32,000 nucleotides of DNA from contig NC_007484.1 of the NCBI RefSeq assembly GCF_000012805.1, positions 180,001-212,000 on the forward strand, written 5' to 3'. A program made the translations under genes and the position numbers. The notes below the pieces were generated by a model, which saw nothing but the letters and a program-made list of their open reading frames with translations, did not search any database and was not told the origin of the DNA. Positions within the stretch are counted from its first letter, which is position 1. Every line of letters starts with the position of its first letter. Below are positions 390 through 7,330 of the stretch, one piece after another. This DNA comes from Nitrosococcus oceani ATCC 19707 (GTDB taxonomy: Bacteria > Pseudomonadota > Gammaproteobacteria > Nitrosococcales > Nitrosococcaceae).

Positions 390-2360
390 GTGCGGATAAT
401 GGGCGCGATAATATTCTCTTTAGGAAAATGGTTGGGTGGGTTGGTTTTCCTCATCAGTCTGCTGGGATACAGCGGGGTAGGAAGTGCCGAGGTGGCGGAA
501 GGTCGGGCGCAGACAGCGTTGCACATGCTGGACTATATTGGGGTGGACTACCCTGAGTTTGTTCAGGGTGGTCAGGCGTTGAATGCGGAAGAGTACCAGG
601 AGCAACTCGAATTTGCCCGTGAAGTCTTAGGAATTGTTGAGCAATTACCCGTAACGCTTCAAAAAGGCGGCATAGAGGAACAAGCCCATCAGCTTCTGGC
701 ATTGATTGAAGAAAAAGGTCCTGGGGACAGAGTCGCTATGGTAGCCGATCAGTTACGCTGGGATATCATTCGAGCTTACCAAATTGAGATTGCGCCCCAA
801 CAAGCGCCTGATTTAAGTGTGGCCGAGGCCCTTTACCAGGCTCAGTGCGCCACCTGCCATGGCGCTGAGGGTTATGGTGATGGTCCAGCCGCTGAAGGAA
901 TGGAACCGGAACCAACTAATTTTCACGAGCAGGCGCGCCAGGAACAACGCAGTATTTACAGCCTTTTTAGCACCATTACCCTGGGGGTGCCGGGCACGGC
1001 CATGCCTAGCTTTAAGCAGCCATTAAGCGAGCACAAGCGTTGGGCGCTGGCCTTTTATGTGAGCACCCTTATCACTACCGCAGAGGAGCAACAAACGGGG
1101 GCTGCCTTATGGCAGCAAGGAATTGGCAAGGAAGCATTTCCTGATTTACAAGCCCTGGCTAGTCAAACTCCCCAGGAGGTTGGCGCACGGTACGGGGAGG
1201 AATCCCGCCAAGTATTGGCTTATTTGCGCAGCGCGCCTGCTCTGCTGGATTCCGAAAAAGCACCGCTGGATTTGAGCTTGGAAGGTCTTGAGAAAAGTCT
1301 CAACGCTTACCGGGAAGGCCATCATGAACGGGCGCAGCAATTGGCGGTGGAGGCGTATTTGGAAGGTTTTGAACTGGTAGAGACGAGCCTTAATACGGTA
1401 GCTCCCAACCTGCGCTCCCACATCGAACAGGAGATGATGGCTTATCGTGCCCTAATCCGGAAAGGCGCGCCGGTTGAATCTCTGGAATCCCAACAAGGGA
1501 AGCTACAAGGTCTATTGAACCAGGCTCGTGAACAGCTCGATGAAGCTGAACTTTCCACCACCGCGATTGCGTTGAGCTCCCTGACCATTATTTTGCGGGA
1601 AGGGCTGGAGGCGGTTCTAATCGTCGGCGCCATTATTTCCTTTTTGATTCGATCCGGGCGGCGTGATGCCCTGATTTATGTGCATTTGGGCTGGATTCCT
1701 GCCTTGGTGCTGGGGGTAGCCACTTGGTTTGCGGCTACTTATCTTATTTCCATTAGCGGGGCGAGCCGCGAGTTAACCGAAGGAATCGCGGCCTTAATAT
1801 CAGCGGCTATATTGCTTTATGTGGGTTTTTGGCTCCATAGCAAAGCCTATGCTAAAGGCTGGCGAGCATTTCTTGCCAAGCAGGTGAGAGGAGCCTTGAA
1901 TAAGCGAACCTTGGGAGCACTGGCTTTGTTATCCTTCCTTGCGGTCTATCGGGAAGTATTCGAGACAGTGTTATTTTATCAGGCTTTGTGGACGCAAGCG
2001 GGTCCCGAAGGGCGTGGAGCAGTGCTTGGTGGTTTTGGTGCCGGGGTGGGAGTGCTCCTGCTAGTGAGCGGGCTAATTTTTTATTATAGCGTTCGCTTGC
2101 CTATTAAGCTTTTCTTCGGAGTTACTTCCGTGATATTGGCGTTACTAGCGGTGATCTTAGCCGGGAAGGGAGTCGGTGCATTGCAGGAAGCGGGCATGAT
2201 TCCGGTGGATGCGGTGGCTTTTCCTAGCATGCCTGCCCTAGGGATTTATCCGAACTGGCAGGTATTGCTTTTGCAAGGGGGAGTGTTGGTGGCCATTATA
2301 GCGGGTTTTGCTTATACGCATTTTGCTTCTCAGCGCACCCCGTCACCGGACAATGCTTAG
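390..2360 (+). CDS. Cytochrome c / FTR1 (EfeU-type) high-affinity iron permease fusion protein
   Basis: 656-aa ORF with an N-terminal hydrophobic signal-like segment. One haem-c motif CATCH (CxxCH), with a downstream GTAMP Met, lies in the soluble N-terminal part. The C-terminal ~270 aa has multiple hydrophobic spans and two RExxE permease motifs (REGLEAV, REVFETV). Confidence 0.8.
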   Translation: MRIMGAIIFSLGKWLGGLVFLISLLGYSGVGSAEVAEGRAQTALHMLDYIGVDYPEFVQGGQALNAEEYQEQLEFAREVLGIVEQLPVTLQKGGIEEQAHQLLALIEEKGPGDRVAMVADQLRWDIIRAYQIEIAPQQAPDLSVAEALYQAQCATCHGAEGYGDGPAAEGMEPEPTNFHEQARQEQRSIYSLFSTITLGVPGTAMPSFKQPLSEHKRWALAFYVSTLITTAEEQQTGAALWQQGIGKEAFPDLQALASQTPQEVGARYGEESRQVLAYLRSAPALLDSEKAPLDLSLEGLEKSLNAYREGHHERAQQLAVEAYLEGFELVETSLNTVAPNLRSHIEQEMMAYRALIRKGAPVESLESQQGKLQGLLNQAREQLDEAELSTTAIALSSLTIILREGLEAVLIVGAIISFLIRSGRRDALIYVHLGWIPALVLGVATWFAATYLISISGASRELTEGIAALISAAILLYVGFWLHSKAYAKGWRAFLAKQVRGALNKRTLGALALLSFLAVYREVFETVLFYQALWTQAGPEGRGAVLGGFGAGVGVLLLVSGLIFYYSVRLPIKLFFGVTSVILALLAVILAGKGVGALQEAGMIPVDAVAFPSMPALGIYPNWQVLLLQGGVLVAIIAGFAYTHFASQRTPSPDNA

Positions 2361-2361
2361 G

Positions 2362-2650
2362 AAGGGATGCTCGGCTTTAGCTTTAAGCGCGTATGCTGGA
2401 TTGCTATTCTACGCCTGCTCTATCGTATCGCCGCCACCCTGGCGCCGGTAGCAATGTTGGATCATGTCCTATGCGCGGCACCGGCCATAGTCTTGGATGA
2501 TGTTGCCCCAGGCGGTGGTCTCCTCGCCGTGGAGTAAATCGGGCAGCATGGTGGCATCAGAGAGAGAGCGGCCGCTGTTGTCGCCACGGCATAAAAAGAG
2601 ACTGAAATGCCAGCCTTCCCAGAAGGCTGGCCAAGTTGTTGCGCGGGATC
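2362..2650 (-). pseudogene. IS5-family (DDE) transposase internal fragment, decayed
   Basis: One minus-strand frame reads ...WEGWHFSLFLCRGDNSGRSLSDATMLPDLLHGEETTAWGN..YG..*..*..LKAKAEHPF. This matches, in order, the IS5 InsH blocks WHFG.K, SGL..S, LLHGEE, .D.GY.G and RA.VEHPF. It has two in-frame TAG stops, no start codon, no N-terminal third and no recognisable inverted repeats. Confidence 0.45.
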
Positions 2651-2973
2651 TATTCCTTATCCAAATTCATGCGTCTCTATCACTGATTAGCAACACTAAA
2701 TAACTTAGGCGATAGGTATGATATTGGTGATTGTTTGCTCCGTTTAAGAGACGGACTGCATCTTATAAGATGCGGGTTGCAAGGCAAAAGAAAAATAAAG
2801 CTGAGGTGCGTATTAGCCAAAATCGATAGGTGCCGCCAGAATCAGTAATTCTTTGATATGAAAGGTAGAAATAGGTATTGGCTAGGAACCAATTGTGTAT
2901 GATAAGGCGCAGCTTAGTCAGCCTATTTCGCGTTATGTTGTCAGGGCAAAATGCCTCGAGATAAAGGTGGATT

Positions 2974-3180
2974 ATGAAACCTAAACTCACGTCTGAGATA
3001 ACATGCCCGGCGTGTGGGCACGGGGAAGTGGAGACAATGCCAGAGGACTCTTGCCAGTATTTTTATGAATGCAAGAACTGCAAAACCCTGCTTAAACCCA
3101 AGCACGGTGATTGCTGTATATTTTGTTCTTATGGCGACACGCCGTGTCCACCCATACAACTAGATCAGTCGTGTTGTTGA
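2974..3180 (+). CDS. GDCCVxC-domain zinc-ribbon metal-binding protein (Cys form)
   Basis: 68 aa with CPACG...CKNC zinc-ribbon pairs, then GDCCIFCSYG and CPPIQ, which is the signature of the small GDCCVxC (seleno)protein family. An AAAGGTGG ribosome-binding site lies 4 nt upstream of the ATG. The ORF ends 4 nt before the merF-like gene. Confidence 0.75.
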   Translation: MKPKLTSEITCPACGHGEVETMPEDSCQYFYECKNCKTLLKPKHGDCCIFCSYGDTPCPPIQLDQSCC

Positions 3181-3184
3181 ATTT

Positions 3185-3400
3185 ATGAAGAACGGAAGCA
3201 GGTTAATAAAGATTGGTGCATTTGGCGGTGTAATTACGGCACTTTGCTGTTTCACTCCGGTTCTCGTTTGGTTGTTTGCGATTCTTGGGGTTTCAGCGTT
3301 GGTGGGTTATTTGGATTACGTGCTTTTGCCATTGCTCGCTGTGTTTCTGGTCTTGTTGTTAACCGGTTTTGTTCAGCCTCAACGTGACAAATCAACATAA
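3185..3400 (+). CDS. merF: MerF-like two-helix mercuric ion transporter, lacking the C-terminal Cys pair
   Basis: 71 aa with two hydrophobic helices. The TALCCFTPVLV...LSALVGYLDYVLLP block closely resembles MerF around its first vicinal Cys pair. The protein ends at QPQRDKST with no second CC pair. Confidence 0.7.
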   Translation: MKNGSRLIKIGAFGGVITALCCFTPVLVWLFAILGVSALVGYLDYVLLPLLAVFLVLLLTGFVQPQRDKST

Positions 3401-3465
3401 CGAGGGGCTGCAGCTGACCGGTTCGCGCTGGCGCTCCAACCGGCAGCCGAGCCCAGGCGTTAGGT
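3395..3465 (+). other. attC-like recombination site 1
   Basis: ACATAAC ... GTTAGGT ends. The arms pair: TAACG.GGGCT with AGCCC.CGTTA, and GCTGACCGGTT with AACCGGCAGC, leaving an unpaired A. The merF-like TAA stop lies inside the inverse core. Confidence 0.6.
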
Positions 3466-3534
3466 GCTTGGCACACCACTGGAAAAGGACGTGGGAGCTG
3501 AAAAAACAAGATTGAATTCTCAGAGGGGAGCCGG

Positions 3535-3948
3535 GTGACTAAAGATAGAAGCGATAATGAAGACAAGCGGACATTGGTAGAGCAGCTTGTTTCGGTTGAA
3601 AGAATCTCTTTCAATGTCACCCAGTCGGTTATCGTTACGACTGAGGACAAAATTCGTCTTTCATTGAGCTCTTATCTGCAAAATGCGAAGAGGCGATCAG
3701 ATTGGATTGCCCCTGCATCCCTTCTGATAGCAATTCTTGCAACACTTGTAACCGCCACATTTAATGATTTCATTCTAAGCGGTGCGACATGGAAAGCGGT
3801 TTTCATTATTGTTGGGTTGGGGGCGGCGATCTGGTTGATACGAGCCCTCCTGTTTTTGCGCGATAAGTCTACGATCGAAGAGTTAATAGAAGAGATAAAG
3901 ACTGGAAATAGAAACGAAGAATCTCAAAGTTCAGGAGGGTCAATTTAA
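3535..3948 (+). CDS. Hypothetical 2-TM membrane protein (137 aa)
   Basis: GTG start 5 nt after GGGGAG. The protein has a ~65-aa charged N-terminal region, two hydrophobic helices (WIAPASLLIAILATLVTATF, WKAVFIIVGLGAAIWLIRALLFL) and an acidic tail. Its stop overlaps the next ATG (TAATG). Confidence 0.6.
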   Translation: MTKDRSDNEDKRTLVEQLVSVERISFNVTQSVIVTTEDKIRLSLSSYLQNAKRRSDWIAPASLLIAILATLVTATFNDFILSGATWKAVFIIVGLGAAIWLIRALLFLRDKSTIEELIEEIKTGNRNEESQSSGGSI

Positions 3949-5312
3949 TGAAACTCCAAGGACGACTCGATGTGCTACAGAAGAAAGCTAAGGCAGCATT
4001 AGCAATTCGACACTACAAAGAGGCAGAATCCCTATTACAAGAGTTATTAGAAACCCAAGTCCAGCACTTTGGTGATGCAGACACGCAGATCGCCACCACA
4101 CTGAACAATCTCGCAGCTCTTTATGAAGCCCAAGGGCGGTATGCTCAGGCCGAGGAGCTTTACCATCGCTCGCTTGCTATCCGCGAACAGTTGCTAGGCC
4201 CGGACCACCCCGAGGTTGCCACCACACTGAACAATCTCGCAGCTCTTTATGAAGCCCAAGGGCGGTATGCTCAGGCCGAGGAGCTTTACCATCGCTCGCT
4301 TGCTATCCGCGAACAGTTGCTAGGCCCGGACCACCCCGAGGTTGCCACCACACTGAACAATCTCGCAGCTCTTTATGAAGCCCAAGGGCGGTATGCTCAG
4401 GCCGAGGAGCTTTACCATCGCTCGCTTGCTATCCGCGAACAGTTGCTAGGCCCGGACCACCCCGAGGTTGCCACCACACTGAACAATCTCGCGGCGCTCT
4501 ATAAGAAACAAGGGAGGTACGCTCAGGCCGAGGAGCTTTACCATCGCTCGCTTGCTATCCGCGAACAGTTGCTAGGCCCGGACCACCCCGAGGTTGCCAC
4601 CACACTGAACAATCTCGCAGCTCTTTATGAAGCCCAAGGGCGGTATGCTCAGGCCGAGGAGCTTTACCATCGCTCGCTTGCTATCCGCGAACAGTTGCTA
4701 GGCCCGGACCACCCCGAGGTTGCCACCACACTGAACAATCTCGCAGCTCTTTATGAAGCCCAAGGGCGGTATGCTCAGGCCGAGGAGCTTTACCATCGCT
4801 CGCTTGCTATCCGCGAACAGTTGCTAGGCCCGGACCACCCCGAGGTTGCCACCACACTGAACAATCTCGCGGCGCTCTATAAGAAACAAGGGAGGTACGC
4901 TCAGGCCGAGGAGCTTTACCATCGCTCGCTTGCTATCCGCGAACAGTTGCTAGGCCCGGACCACCCCGAGGTTGCCACCACACTGAACAATCTCGCAGCT
5001 CTTTATGAAGCCCAAGGGCGGTATGCTCAGGCCGAGGAGCTTTACCATCGCTCGCTTGCTATCCGCGAACAGTTGCTAGGCCCGGACCACCCCGAGGTTG
5101 CAATCATGCTAAATAATCTTGCTGGCTTGTACAGGGCGACGGGATTGGGTGAGAAAGCAGAAAGTTTGTATGACAGAAGCTTGGCGGTAATGGAAAAAAT
5201 ATTCGGGCCAAGACATCCAAATACTGCAATCGTACGAGCCAACCGCGATGCTTATAAACATACGGCACCTAACAAGGCAAATTCAGCCGACGCCAAAAAG
5301 CGGCGCGGCTGA
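3948..5312 (+). CDS. Tetratricopeptide repeat protein (42-residue KLC-type TPR_10/TPR_12 units)
   Basis: 454 aa made of a 48-aa N-terminus, eight near-identical 42-aa units (ATTLNNLAALYEAQGRYAQAEELYHRSLAIREQLLGPDHPEV), one divergent unit and a basic tail. No NTPase or other enzymatic domain is evident. Confidence 0.9.
   Translation: MKLQGRLDVLQKKAKAALAIRHYKEAESLLQELLETQVQHFGDADTQIATTLNNLAALYEAQGRYAQAEELYHRSLAIREQLLGPDHPEVATTLNNLAALYEAQGRYAQAEELYHRSLAIREQLLGPDHPEVATTLNNLAALYEAQGRYAQAEELYHRSLAIREQLLGPDHPEVATTLNNLAALYKKQGRYAQAEELYHRSLAIREQLLGPDHPEVATTLNNLAALYEAQGRYAQAEELYHRSLAIREQLLGPDHPEVATTLNNLAALYEAQGRYAQAEELYHRSLAIREQLLGPDHPEVATTLNNLAALYKKQGRYAQAEELYHRSLAIREQLLGPDHPEVATTLNNLAALYEAQGRYAQAEELYHRSLAIREQLLGPDHPEVAIMLNNLAGLYRATGLGEKAESLYDRSLAVMEKIFGPRHPNTAIVRANRDAYKHTAPNKANSADAKKRRG
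4092..5099 (+). repeat. 8 x 126-bp in-frame tandem repeat with a 378-bp higher-order duplication
   Basis: Unit starts are 4092, 4218, 4344, 4470, 4596, 4722, 4848 and 4974. Six units are identical by eye. Units 4 and 7 share the same 10 substitutions inside a 33-bp patch (EA to KK plus synonymous changes). Segment 4218-4595 equals 4596-4973. Confidence 0.97.
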
Positions 5313-5327
5313 TTTGCGGCGATAGAC
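5267..5327 (+). other. attC-like recombination site 2 (short 61-bp type, core mutated)
   Basis: ACCTAAC ... TCAGCCGACGCC / GGCGCGGCTGA ... GATAGAC. The arms pair with an unpaired A. The architecture resembles, from memory, the ~60-bp aadA-type attC. The core reads GAT instead of GTT. Confidence 0.5.
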
Positions 5328-5374: not shown

Positions 5375-5414
5375 TTGACATACCAAATAAAGTATACATA
5401 CTTTTTATGGTATG
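5375..5414 (+). promoter_or_regulatory. Candidate cassette-internal promoter and operator for the toxin-antitoxin pair
   Basis: TTGACA (5375-5380), a 16-nt spacer, then CATACT (5397-5402). The imperfect inverted repeat CATACCAAATAAAG (5379-5392) / CTTTTTATGGTATG (5401-5414) matches at 12 of 14 positions and overlaps the -35 box and the ATG. Confidence 0.3.
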
Positions 5415-5693
5415 TGGAAAATCCTTGAGCATAGAAGGATCTGGCAACAGCTCGACCGACTCCCTCTCGATATTTTGAAGCGATATGAGAAGTGGAAAGA
5501 TATCGTCCGTCTCTCAGGCCCGAATGGGCTGAGGCAGATTAAGGGATTCAACGACGAAGCGTTACGGGGAGAGTGGCGTGGGCACCGCTCCTCGAGGCTC
5601 AGCCGCCAGTATCGAGTGATATATCGGATTGAGCAGGATAAGGTGGTTGTAGAAGTAGTTAGGGTGACCGCTCACGATTATCGGAGGAAGTGA
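5412..5693 (+). CDS. RelE/ParE-superfamily type II toxin (toxin-first, HigB-like arrangement)
   Basis: 93 aa. The C-terminal block LRGEWRGHRSSRLSRQYRVIYRIEQDKVVVEVVRVTAHDY is typical of RelE/ParE-fold toxins. The gene ends 1 nt before the HTH gene. Confidence 0.75.
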   Translation: MWKILEHRRIWQQLDRLPLDILKRYEKWKDIVRLSGPNGLRQIKGFNDEALRGEWRGHRSSRLSRQYRVIYRIEQDKVVVEVVRVTAHDYRRK

Positions 5694-5694
5694 A

Positions 5695-5955
5695 ATGAGC
5701 GAGTATCGAAAAGCCGGGAAGAGGGTCGATGTATCGATTGGTGAATCCGTCCGCATTCTCCGGGAGTTGCAGGAACTCAGCCAAAATGAGCTGTCGGAGA
5801 TGACTGGGATTCCTCAGTCTACAATCTCGGCGATTGAGCGGGATCGGATTCGCTTGGGCGTGGAAAGGGCCAAAGTACTCGCACGTGCGCTGCGGTGCCA
5901 TCCAGCAGTTTTGGTTTTTCCTGGCTGGGATGTAGAGCACGAGTCGGCCGCCTAA
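5695..5955 (+). CDS. XRE-family helix-turn-helix antitoxin
   Basis: 86 aa. The LSQNELSEMTGIPQSTISAIERDR segment is a Cro/C1-type HTH. It sits directly downstream of the toxin. Confidence 0.8.
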   Translation: MSEYRKAGKRVDVSIGESVRILRELQELSQNELSEMTGIPQSTISAIERDRIRLGVERAKVLARALRCHPAVLVFPGWDVEHESAA

Positions 5956-6022
5956 CAAGGCGCTCCACCGAACGACAATTCCGCTACGCTCTATTGCCGT
6001 TCGGTAAGCTTAGTCGTTAGAT
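5950..6022 (+). other. attC-like recombination site 3
   Basis: GCCTAAC ... GTTAGAT ends. ACCGAACGACAAT pairs with ATTGCCGTTCGGT around the loop TCCGCTACGCTCT. The antitoxin TAA stop lies inside the inverse core. Confidence 0.65.
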
Positions 6023-6327
6023 TCTAAAGGAGAACATGGAGTGAGTCTGGGGGCCGTTTTCGATGATCCGCCGAGACTGATTGCGTCAGTAAGGTATAAA
6101 ACGGAGCAGTCAAGATATTTTTTTGCACTGTTCGGGTTGACAGCGATTGCGATTGGCTTGGTATAGATATCAATTGAGACGAAATGTTAACGATTATTAG
6201 ATTCGAGCGCGATCTCCGGAGAGTGGTTGGCATGAGATACATACCATTTATGCTGTATTTGCTTAGCGGTCCCCTATTTGCAGATACACCAAGCTGGCTT
6301 TGCATAGGGGAGCACACTGCTCAAGTG

Positions 6328-6540
6328 ATGCCAGCATAGGCTTTGAAGAGCTGCGCTCATTGCTGAAGAGCCTGGGCTTTGAAGAACGTATTCGTGGCAG
6401 CCATCATATCTATTCGCCGTGTCGATATAGAAGAGCGCTTGAATCTTCAGCGTGAAGGCGCCAAAGCCAAGCCCTATCAAGTTCATCAAGTACGTGCTGT
6501 TATTCTGAAATATCGGCTAGGAGTCGATGACGATGCATAA
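6328..6540 (+). pseudogene. hicA: hicA-family toxin, frameshifted
   Basis: Frame 0 reads GFEELRSLLKSLGFEERIRGSHHIY. The continuation (I)RRVDIEERLNLQREGAKAKPYQVHQVRAVILKYRLGVDDDA* is in the +1 frame from about 6412. The ATG at 6328 hits TAG after 3 codons, so there is at least one frameshift. The 3' end overlaps the hicB start. Confidence 0.6.
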
Positions 6541-6745
6541 ATACGAAGTGATTATTTATTGGAGTCAAGAAGATAAAACGTTTATAGCTGGGGTGCCGGA
6601 GCTGCCTGGTTGCATGGTACATGGTCCTACCCAAATGGCGGCATTAGAGAGTGTGAATCAAGCAATAGAGTTATGGTTGGATACCGCACGGGAATTTAAT
6701 GATCCCATTCCTGAGCCGAAGGGGCGTCGATTACTGTATGCGTAG
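6527..6745 (+). CDS. hicB: HicB-family antitoxin (UPF0150 / RNase H-like fold)
   Basis: 72 aa. YEVIIYWSQEDKTFIAGVPELPGCMVHGPTQMAALESVNQAIELWL is a typical HicB N-domain. An alternative start is the ATG at 6533. Confidence 0.8.
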   Translation: MTMHKYEVIIYWSQEDKTFIAGVPELPGCMVHGPTQMAALESVNQAIELWLDTAREFNDPIPEPKGRRLLYA

Positions 6746-6747
6746 GG

Positions 6748-6817
6748 CGCTAACCATTTGCTCAAGCGGACTGCTCCCTTCGGTCGCATCCGCTTAGCTC
6801 GGCCATTATAGTTACTA
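6748..6817 (+). other. attC-like recombination site 4 (degenerate, terminal)
   Basis: CGCTAAC ... AAGCGGA / TCCGCTT ... GTTACTA. Both core motifs have one mismatch. The 3' end overlaps the apt stop codon. Confidence 0.4.
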
Positions 6818-7330
6818 GTAGTGGACTAGGGAGTGGACAGTATAATCGGAAAGTCTCTCCCGCCCGTGCAGAAAGTCCAGTTCGATGACGAAGGCGCAAG
6901 CCGCTACCGTGGCCCCCAGGCTTTCTACCAGTTCGCAGCTTGCTTTGGCGGTGCCGCCGGTGGCGAGCAGATCATCCACTAGCAGGACGTTATCTCCAGG
7001 ACCGAGAGAATCGGTATGAGCCTCCAGGCTGGCAGAGCCATATTCCAGCTGATAGGAGATGCTTCGGACTTCATAGGGAAGCTTGCCGGATTTGCGCAAG
7101 GGGATAAAACCTACCCCCAACTCCCAGGCGACCAGCGCGCCAAAGATAAAACCCCGCGCCTCTATCCCACCAACCGCCGTGATATCCTGCTCCAGGAAGG
7201 GATGGAGGAGTTGGTGCACCGCTAGCCGTAAGGTGGCGGGGTCTCCGACTAAGGGGGTGATATCCTTGAAGAGGACGCCCGGCTTGGGAAAATCGGGTAT
7301 ATCGCGGATTTTAGTTTTGAGCCGCTCCAT
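6815..7330 (-). CDS. apt: Adenine phosphoribosyltransferase
   Basis: MERLKTKIRDIPDFPKPGVLFKDITPL matches the Apt N-terminus, and a VLLVDDLLATGGT PRPP-binding loop is present. The 224-aa track ORF is trimmed to Met54. Confidence 0.9.
   Translation of the reverse strand: MERLKTKIRDIPDFPKPGVLFKDITPLVGDPATLRLAVHQLLHPFLEQDITAVGGIEARGFIFGALVAWELGVGFIPLRKSGKLPYEVRSISYQLEYGSASLEAHTDSLGPGDNVLLVDDLLATGGTAKASCELVESLGATVAACAFVIELDFLHGRERLSDYTVHSLVHY

Follow-up and report, generated by a model that had tools for sequence, protein, structure and literature searches.

The window, a 32,000-nucleotide stretch of Nitrosococcus oceani ATCC 19707 (contig NC_007484.1, positions 180,001 to 212,000), contains two translationally coupled genes, one for a 137-residue protein with two predicted transmembrane (TM) helices, referred to as the 2TM protein, and one for a 454-residue protein made up almost entirely of tetratricopeptide repeats (TPRs). 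Their boundaries show that the two genes make up a single mobile integron cassette (window positions 3460-5321). The pairing of the two genes is conserved, and the small protein belongs to a large membrane-protein family whose members exchange their partners and lie in varied neighbourhoods. Interest therefore centres on the 2TM family and not on this pair alone, since the TPR protein is only one of the various partners with which the family can be combined. It is suggested, with a little less than even confidence, that the pair is a conflict (anti-phage) module in which a sensor or adaptor acts together with a membrane effector, following a logic like that of RexAB and Sucellos. Positions given below are those of the window unless another locus is named.

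A two-gene integron cassette

Two open reading frames (ORFs) joined by a TAATG overlap had been predicted from the letters alone, and both are present exactly as described. The first, on the forward strand (3535-3948), begins with GTG and encodes the 137-residue 2TM protein, and the second, on the same strand (3948-5312), begins with ATG and encodes the 454-residue TPR protein; the TAA stop codon (3946-3948) and the ATG (3948-3950) have one base in common. The GTG start is backed by the alignment of the N terminus across 13 homologues. Shine-Dalgarno-like sequences were read 5 nt upstream of the GTG (GAGGGGA, 3523-3529, forward strand) and 8 nt upstream of the ATG of the TPR gene (AGGAGGG).

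Upstream of the pair lies attC site 1 (3395-3465, forward strand), with R'' ACATAAC at 3395-3401 and R' GTTAGGT at 3459-3465. The R'' box overlaps the merF stop codon, and the site is the 3' end of the preceding cassette, which encodes a GDCCVxC-domain protein and MerF. Its bottom strand folds into a canonical hairpin with paired R boxes and bulged bases (-21.4 kcal/mol, z -3.3). When the whole window was scanned strictly for attC sites, only this one (-0.56 kcal/mol per nt) and a second at 5950-6022 (-0.45 kcal/mol per nt) stood out, with all other candidates at -0.29 kcal/mol per nt or weaker. Site 2 (5267-5327, forward strand), which overlaps the stop codon of the TPR gene (5310-5312), forms a hairpin with two bulged bases (z -3.8) and has R'' ACCTAAC at 5267-5273; at the R' position (5321-5327) it reads GATAGAC, not GTTRRRY. 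Because GAT replaces GTT in the R' core, site 2 is degenerate in the window.

The extent of the cassette is fixed by an orthologous pair, also of 137 and 454 residues, in an unrelated gammaproteobacterial metagenome-assembled genome (locus L018), where an integron integrase lies ~2 kb upstream (TIGR02249, 397.5 bits against a cut-off of 265). In L018 the 3' attC retains GTT (z -5.9), and its 50-nt core is ~98% identical to that of the window. Homology between the two loci starts at GGCGTTAGGTGCTT, a junction that precedes the pair in both, and stops at the attC core after the TPR stop codon. Since homology to this integrase-linked unit is bounded by attC cores, the pair is regarded as one two-gene cassette, starting in the window at the TT of position 3460. 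A canonical 5' attC is present, and so, for the cassette type, is a 3' attC, kept with its GTT in L018 and degenerate here. The original prediction of a cassette between two attC-like sites therefore stands as to its being a single two-gene unit, with the amendment that its second site has decayed in this genome. Among other homologues, an attC hairpin ending in GTTAGGT was found ~70 nt before the 2TM start in locus L004; in L019, GTTAGGT occurs at the same distance, but an attC hairpin was not found there.

No integron integrase or remnant of one was found in the 32-kb window by tblastn with the L018 integrase (best E 0.14), and a complete integron, with intI and attI adjoining the array, was not recognised there. 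Lacking an integrase, the array resembles a cluster of attC sites lacking integron-integrases (CALIN), as far as the window shows. Literature searches gave nothing of use on Nitrosococcus integrons. The two intact attC sites, 3395-3465 and 5950-6022, now bracket four genes, namely the pair and a RelE-like/helix-turn-helix (HTH) toxin-antitoxin (TA) module.

This company raises the question of whether the pair is itself an addiction or stabilisation module, with the 2TM protein as toxin and the TPR protein as the partner that neutralises it, helping to retain the cassette array. The neighbouring cassettes are TA pairs, one RelE-like with an HTH partner (5412-5955) and one resembling HicA/HicB, TA cassettes stabilise chromosomal integron arrays (PMC11023631), and tight translational coupling would fit a fixed stoichiometry. 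However, the features of a type II TA system were not found in the pair, with neither a promoter of its own nor an operator palindrome detected upstream, whereas the adjacent RelE/HTH cassette has both promoter and operator (5375-5415). Pfam and NCBIfam searches also revealed no DNA-binding domain in either the 2TM or the TPR protein, so that a DNA-binding antitoxin is absent. An antitoxin of 454 residues with a variable number of repeats would be atypical, and other members of the 2TM family have quite different partners or are single-polypeptide fusions. An addiction module is accordingly considered distinctly improbable.

The TPR protein had been described as an almost pure array of 42-residue units of the kinesin light chain (KLC) type without an enzymatic domain, and Pfam, NCBIfam and the spacing of the units bore this out. 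A capping region of ~45 residues at the N terminus is followed by eight near-identical 42-residue units and one divergent C-terminal cap unit, giving nine TPR units at exact 42-residue spacing; the non-repeat part of the protein is confined to the ~45 N-terminal and ~35 C-terminal residues. Against Pfam the protein matched TPR_12 (6e-183) and TPR_10 (1e-147), and only repeat or repeat-like families were listed for it in Pfam and NCBIfam, with no NTPase (NB-ARC, NACHT) and no CHAT protease. Among proteins of solved structure it comes closest to kinesin light chains 1 and 2 (KLC1, E 1e-64). Its PADLOC matches, to a generic 'TPR' model and to PDC-S39 only, arise through the repeats and reflect generic similarity.

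At the DNA level the internal TPR units are coded by a 126-bp tandem repeat (4092-5101, forward strand), in which Tandem Repeats Finder counted 8.0 copies with 95% matches. In the window, L018, L001 and L025, units of one and the same protein share 83-96% of their DNA sequence, compared with 40-71% for units of different orthologues, and the units evolve in concert. The window units follow the pattern E-E-E-K-E-E-K-E plus cap. In a second assembly of the same species (L010, 3414-4400) the TPR protein has 328 residues and the pattern E-E-E-K-E plus cap, its gene being shorter than that of the window by exactly one E-E-K block (378 bp, three units). Several short-read contigs of the species end inside the TPR repeat, and the difference between 454 and 328 residues could be true allelic variation in copy number or a collapsed assembly. 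Close TPR homologues have 3 (L004, L008 and L019), 6 (L001 and L010) or 9 units (window and L018), together with a common N-terminal region and a common divergent cap unit (AIxLNNLAGLY...NTAIVRANR). A longer form was seen in L040 (598-2022) and L043 (5351-6775), where the TPR partner has 474 residues, with an extra ~120 at the C terminus that are glycine-rich and possibly membrane-associated.

The 2TM family and its partners

The 2TM protein consists of an N-terminal domain, TM1, a short loop, TM2, an amphipathic acidic C-terminal helix (IEELIEEIK) and a tail. Hydropathy places the hydrophobic segments at residues ~57-76 (TM1) and ~87-108 (TM2), separated by a loop of 10 residues, and lysine or arginine residues lie on the outer flanks of both. 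The N-terminal domain is charged (10 K/R, 9 D/E) and the C-terminal tail has a net charge of -3, so that the charged N-terminal domain, two TM helices and acidic tail noted from the letters are all recovered in the hydropathy and charge profile. Both termini are predicted to be cytoplasmic by the positive-inside rule. A conserved motif, LNVxQxVIVTTEDK, occupies residues ~26-39 of the N-terminal domain. At least 16 contigs, which come from a number of assemblies and sequencing runs, encode an identical 2TM protein.

Database searches placed the 2TM protein in no characterised family. It had no match in Pfam, NCBIfam or PADLOC and none in a sequence search of the PDB, and neither these resources nor Foldseek pointed to a housekeeping family. 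Such Pfam hits as the family gave were chance similarity of TM segments alone (MFS_1, 2TM domain, holin-like). The sole real match was to phrog_32870 (E 3e-13), a PHROGs family without functional annotation.

Four more specific assignments were examined. A SLATT-like 2TM effector fold, which the original prediction had proposed as a test case, was not supported: hmmscan of the query gave no match to SLATT_1-6 or DUF4231 (E<=0.01), the fold search was equally silent, and when 68 family members were compared with Pfam (E<=1), no SLATT, PycTM or 2TM-effector family was among the 25 most-matched families listed. LapA (YciS, DUF1049) was considered because of a Joint Genome Institute label, 'YciS', on one homologue and because of the lapA-lapB gene order. 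An hhalign comparison of the family profile with Escherichia coli LapA gave a probability of 7.5%, and the topology differs, as LapA begins with a TM helix, without an N-terminal domain, and continues with a periplasmic loop, a TM helix and a C-terminal coiled coil. Homology of the TPR protein to LapB was likewise dismissed, the BLASTP similarity being generic to TPRs (21% identity). Class II (2-TM) holins have both termini inside, a topology similar to that predicted for the 2TM protein, and a similar charged tail. Matches to Phage_holin_3_6 were weak and limited to 4 of the 68 family members (E>=0.024), the conserved 55-residue N-terminal domain is atypical for holins, and no endolysin neighbour was seen at any surveyed family locus.

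The family itself is large. An exhaustive HMMER search recovered 1483 representatives of 50%-identity clusters at E<=1e-3 and 586 at E<=1e-10, and a word-indexed search returned 13 close clusters, from Candidatus Electrothrix, Electronema and metagenomes. Members share a signature made up of the motif LNVxQxVIVTTEDKxxLxL in the N-terminal domain, W-x-x-P where TM1 begins, one tryptophan at the boundary of loop and TM2, another inside TM2, and a helix with IEDLIxELK near the C terminus. Across an alignment of 102 sequences T36, D38, P60, F76, W86 and W100 are invariant. The family occurs in Bacteria, Archaea and phages, with a patchy distribution that crosses phyla and domains.

Wherever the DNA downstream of a close homologue could be read, a TPR gene was found whose start overlaps the 2TM gene; the loci are L001/L002 and L019 (cable bacteria/Desulfobulbaceae), L004/L005, L008 and L018. 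A TPR gene also comes next in distant members with 44-50% identity (L020, L022, L025/L026, L032, L035, L037, L039, L040/L043, L050, L054 and L062), one of which, L025/L026, is a prophage-like region of Rhodovulum sulfidophilum. The association of the two genes thus holds well beyond the window, as the proposed two-gene system would lead one to expect, and in total a downstream TPR partner was found in ~20 of ~45 distinct loci.

Other loci have partners of different kinds. A zinc-ribbon protein of ~90 residues, with the motif CPRCG...GYFNQ...CNxCG, is encoded upstream by a gene that overlaps the 2TM start (L021, L027-L029, L033, L036, L038, L042, L055, L061, L066 and L074/L075). A DUF6864 protein (PF21732), which also matches phrog_32866, is encoded upstream in translationally coupled form in seven loci (L023, L024, L041, L056, L059, L060 and L076); no mention of DUF6864 was found in the literature searched. 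At L046 (5517-6575) the partner downstream of the 2TM homologue is a hybrid of WD40 and TPR_12 repeats, so the partner slot accepts different repeat scaffolds. Single-chain versions also exist, in which the 2TM protein is fused at its C terminus to a DnaJ-like_C11_C domain, to a domain resembling 3-keto-disaccharide hydrolase or to domains without assignment. No catalytic domain was detected in any separately encoded partner, which leaves the conserved 2TM protein, the one element shared by all these loci, as the sole plausible candidate for the active part.

Two loci show further genes beside the pair. In L033, a gene for a Trypsin_2-type serine protease (1467-2297, 3.7e-9) lies ~100 nt downstream of the zinc-ribbon and 2TM genes, and may represent a third component in some variants. 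In L062, a 791-residue EF-G-like paralogue with the full EF-G domain set (2330-4705) is encoded directly upstream of the 2TM and TPR genes, and an HNH_5 endonuclease gene follows them.

Candidate role as sensor and membrane effector

The preferred reading of the pair can be set out as follows. The cytoplasmic TPR solenoid would be the specificity or sensor subunit and would bind a phage-derived or infection-induced protein or peptide. Once bound to its ligand it would release or assemble the 2TM effector, which would oligomerise into a pore or channel and collapse the membrane potential (abortive infection) or, alternatively, block phage entry at the membrane. Unequal recombination among TPR units would alter their number and would probably retune or resize the binding surface. 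The membrane topology, the physical interaction of the two proteins, the assignment of sensing and acting to one subunit or the other, and an anti-phage phenotype are all presumed in this scheme, and the function itself is inferred through guilt by association.

Several observations point in this direction. The original prediction had cited integron cassettes as carriers of compact antiphage systems, and this has been documented (10.1101/2024.07.02.601719; 10.1101/2024.07.02.601686). About one-third of defence cassettes from mobile integrons have TM helices (10.1101/2024.07.02.601719), and Sucellos, which has been validated, comprises two genes in one cassette, both of which are required, with a membrane subunit predicted to form pores (10.1101/2024.07.02.601686). 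The family is present in phages, as the 2TM protein resembles phrog_32870 and the DUF6864 partner resembles phrog_32866. The proposal that the layout represents a defence module therefore retains its cassette status, the co-occurrence of the two genes and the orphan status of the membrane protein, loses the SLATT connection, and is, as to defence itself, a well-motivated inference.

Most of the surveyed loci lie amid genes of mobile elements or conflict systems, and family members are frequently found beside restriction-modification, TA, prophage or integron genes. The integron setting is that of the window and L018. Prophage settings include L023 (the same as the IMG/VR contig L031), beside terminase genes, and L025, which follows HNH and terminase genes and has fragments of GmrSD_C and UvrD next to it. 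Type I restriction-modification genes accompany the family in L074 and in L076, the latter with Mrr_cat and PemK, and type III genes in L077, with DUF3800 and TnsA. HepT/MNT and PIN TA genes were seen in L001 and in L027, which also has a weak PycTM hit. Transposases and a resolvase occur in L004, L005 and L008, a Zeta toxin with a P4-type integrase in L041, DUF6088/AbiEii in L058 and ParE in L053.

The prophage loci also bear on exclusion without cell death. Here the partner would organise the 2TM protein so that it keeps the phage genome from entering or stops another membrane step of infection, in the manner of the superinfection exclusion (Sie) proteins of prophages or of Deva. This fits a small inner-membrane protein whose relatives are prophage accessory genes (L023/L031 and L025) and are also found in PHROGs; among integron cassettes, Deva encodes a product that is located in the membrane and interferes with injection of the genome (10.1101/2024.07.02.601719). 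However, known Sie-type proteins usually act alone, and strict coupling to cytoplasmic partners, together with the predicted cytoplasmic location of both termini, suggests sensing in the cytoplasm and not a block in the periplasm. Exclusion of this kind seems quite unlikely.

A number of results weigh against a sensor-effector module. The 2TM protein and seven other family members had no hits in PADLOC-DB v2 at E<=1, and the zinc-ribbon and DUF6864 partners had none in PADLOC either. The AlphaFold2 monomer of the 2TM protein, built from the 102-sequence alignment, is of low confidence (mean predicted local distance difference test score, pLDDT, 62.8) and is not usable for fold inference; it shows a long N-terminal helix continuing into TM1, followed by TM2 and a C-terminal helix, and Foldseek found no significant structural neighbour for it. 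With a model of low confidence and no structural match, pore formation lacks structural support; the protein probably needs oligomerisation or its partner to fold. With TPR units so nearly identical, a finely differentiated surface for binding ligands is less likely. The stretch from attC site 1 to the 2TM start codon showed no sigma-70 consensus promoter, and, as the window holds no integrase or cassette (Pc) promoter and the downstream attC has decayed, the cassette may be silent, or a fossil, in this genome. The neighbourhood survey covered a few dozen loci picked by availability, and its pattern is suggestive, not statistical. It includes several metagenomic contigs (L029 and L075 among them) in which genes for a 138-residue 2TM protein and a 95-residue zinc-ribbon protein lie between recR and recO, a conserved, housekeeping-like position that contrasts with the mobile settings of the other branches. 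The expected proximity to defence-like genes was seen in part: restriction-modification, TA, prophage and integron settings are frequent, and one sizeable subfamily occupies a housekeeping neighbourhood.

The signs of decay could mean that the pair is now a silent passenger in this genome, neither expressed nor mobile and without effect but with its ORFs still intact, whichever of the functions considered here its ancestor had. The change of GTT to GAT in the R' core of attC site 2, the lack of an integrase in the window and the lack of a consensus promoter upstream are consistent with this. Set against it are the intactness of both ORFs, the identity of the 2TM protein in at least 16 contigs and the strong Shine-Dalgarno sequences that have been kept, and read-through from the upstream cassette is possible. 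A decaying passenger is rated as highly improbable.

The recR-recO subfamily, by contrast with the mobile loci, would suit a membrane-tethered adaptor or scaffold outside defence, in which the 2TM protein would hold or regulate, at the inner membrane, a soluble interaction module of the TPR, WD40 or zinc-ribbon type, possibly for regulated proteolysis or for envelope or stress functions, with a layout like that of lapA-lapB. In E. coli, lapA-lapB has the same order, with a TPR gene directly after a small 2TM gene. The TPRs of LapB are accompanied by a rubredoxin-type zinc site, and TPR and zinc-ribbon proteins are the two commonest partner types found here. The absence of enzymatic domains from the partners would also be natural in an adaptor. 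However, the hhalign probability of LapA and its different topology, and the generic nature of the similarity to LapB, speak against kinship with that system, and the pair resides on an integron cassette, its relatives on prophages, with patchy spread across phyla and domains. Carriage on cassettes and prophages and patchy spread fit accessory or conflict genes better than housekeeping genes. An adaptor outside defence is thus judged unlikely.

If the pair is a sensor-effector module, its nearest analogues in logic are the phage lambda system RexAB and a RexAB-like cassette from the chromosomal integron of Vibrio cholerae, Sucellos (SclA/SclB), which are likewise two-gene mobile modules, on prophages or integron cassettes, and combine a soluble subunit without enzymatic domains with a small membrane subunit proposed as the killing pore or channel. 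No relationship of sequence or fold to the pair was detected for either. RexB has four TM helices, whereas the membrane protein of the pair has two and a conserved N-terminal domain; the soluble subunit of the pair is a TPR solenoid, and its membrane gene comes first. SLATT-type and 2TM effectors of the cyclic-oligonucleotide-based anti-phage signalling systems (CBASS), Pycsar and retrons (Cap14/Cap15 and PycTM) resemble the 2TM protein in having a TM hairpin with a soluble helical region, a separate sensor and a location in conflict islands. They differ in that the pair lacks a generator of nucleotide signals and that 2TM proteins are partnered by repeat proteins, zinc-ribbon proteins or DUF6864.

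In prokaryotic immunity, KLC-type TPR arrays serve as sensor domains that bind ligands. STAND NTPases (Avs, NB-ARC/NACHT) and TPR-CHAT proteins have the same KLC-type TPR_10/TPR_12 repeats as the TPR protein, which differs in lacking an NTPase or protease, in having its presumed effector encoded separately and in the near-identity of its units. LapA-LapB (YciS-YciM) of Enterobacteria also has a small 2TM gene directly upstream of a TPR gene, with zinc-binding modules recurring among the partners. It is not homologous, however, and is core and linked to an essential pathway, whereas the pair described here is cassette-borne and patchy. Entries already exist for the 2TM protein (phrog_32870) and for its alternative partner (phrog_32866 and DUF6864), unannotated as to function and without a description of the TPR-partnered branch or of the cassette setting. 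A sensor with a membrane effector on a mobile element is thus of a known kind, and it is the protein families and the partner-swapping architecture that were not described in the libraries and literature searched.

Were the pair a defence system, prokaryotic immunity would gain a new family of effectors, unusually small in size and with no equivalent in Pfam, NCBIfam or PADLOC. The view of integrons as biobanks of defence, which has centred on Vibrio and on class 1 integrons of clinical origin, would then also take in environmental nitrifiers and relatives of sulfate reducers. A broader proposal can be put forward with low confidence, namely that the 2TM family provides widespread plug-in membrane effectors wired to interchangeable non-enzymatic sensors, that these would constitute a new minimal two-component class of anti-phage system and that, in the TPR branch, variation in repeat number through unequal recombination would tune specificity rapidly. 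The family offers a natural domain swap, with one conserved membrane core and at least four unrelated candidate sensor types, which suits it to the study of how non-enzymatic sensors gate a membrane effector. Even if it is not defensive, the analysis defines a large orphan family of membrane proteins with a conserved motif and obligate partners.

Neighbouring cassettes and other features of the window

The preceding cassette (2974-3400), which ends in attC site 1, carries two mercury-related genes, one for a 68-residue GDCCVxC-domain protein (NF041374, 1.4e-29) and one for a 71-residue MerF mercury transporter (NF033565, 1.7e-22). Downstream of the pair, a RelE/StbE-like toxin gene (5412-5693) is followed by an HTH_3 antitoxin gene (5695-5955), in toxin-first order. 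A sigma-70-like promoter belonging to this cassette (TTGACA-16-CATACT) lies at 5375-5402, within an inverted repeat of 18 nt at 5378-5415, and the module is closed by the intact attC site at 5950-6022. Beyond it, a HicA-like frame is split over 6300-6455 and 6379-6540, which suggests a frameshifted toxin, and is followed by a HicB/UPF0150-like ORF of 72 residues (6527-6745) and a weak attC-like hairpin (6748-6818, z -2.1). The HicA/HicB-like unit (6300-6818) is probably the last, decaying cassette before a housekeeping phosphoribosyltransferase gene and gyrA.

On the other side of the array, ~600 bp without a convincing gene (2361-2973) separate the first cassette from a gene for a cytochrome c-FTR1 fusion, and tblastn found no integrase remnant in this gap. 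The fusion gene (390-2360) encodes 656 residues, in which a cytochrome c domain is joined to an iron permease of the FTR1/EfeU type.

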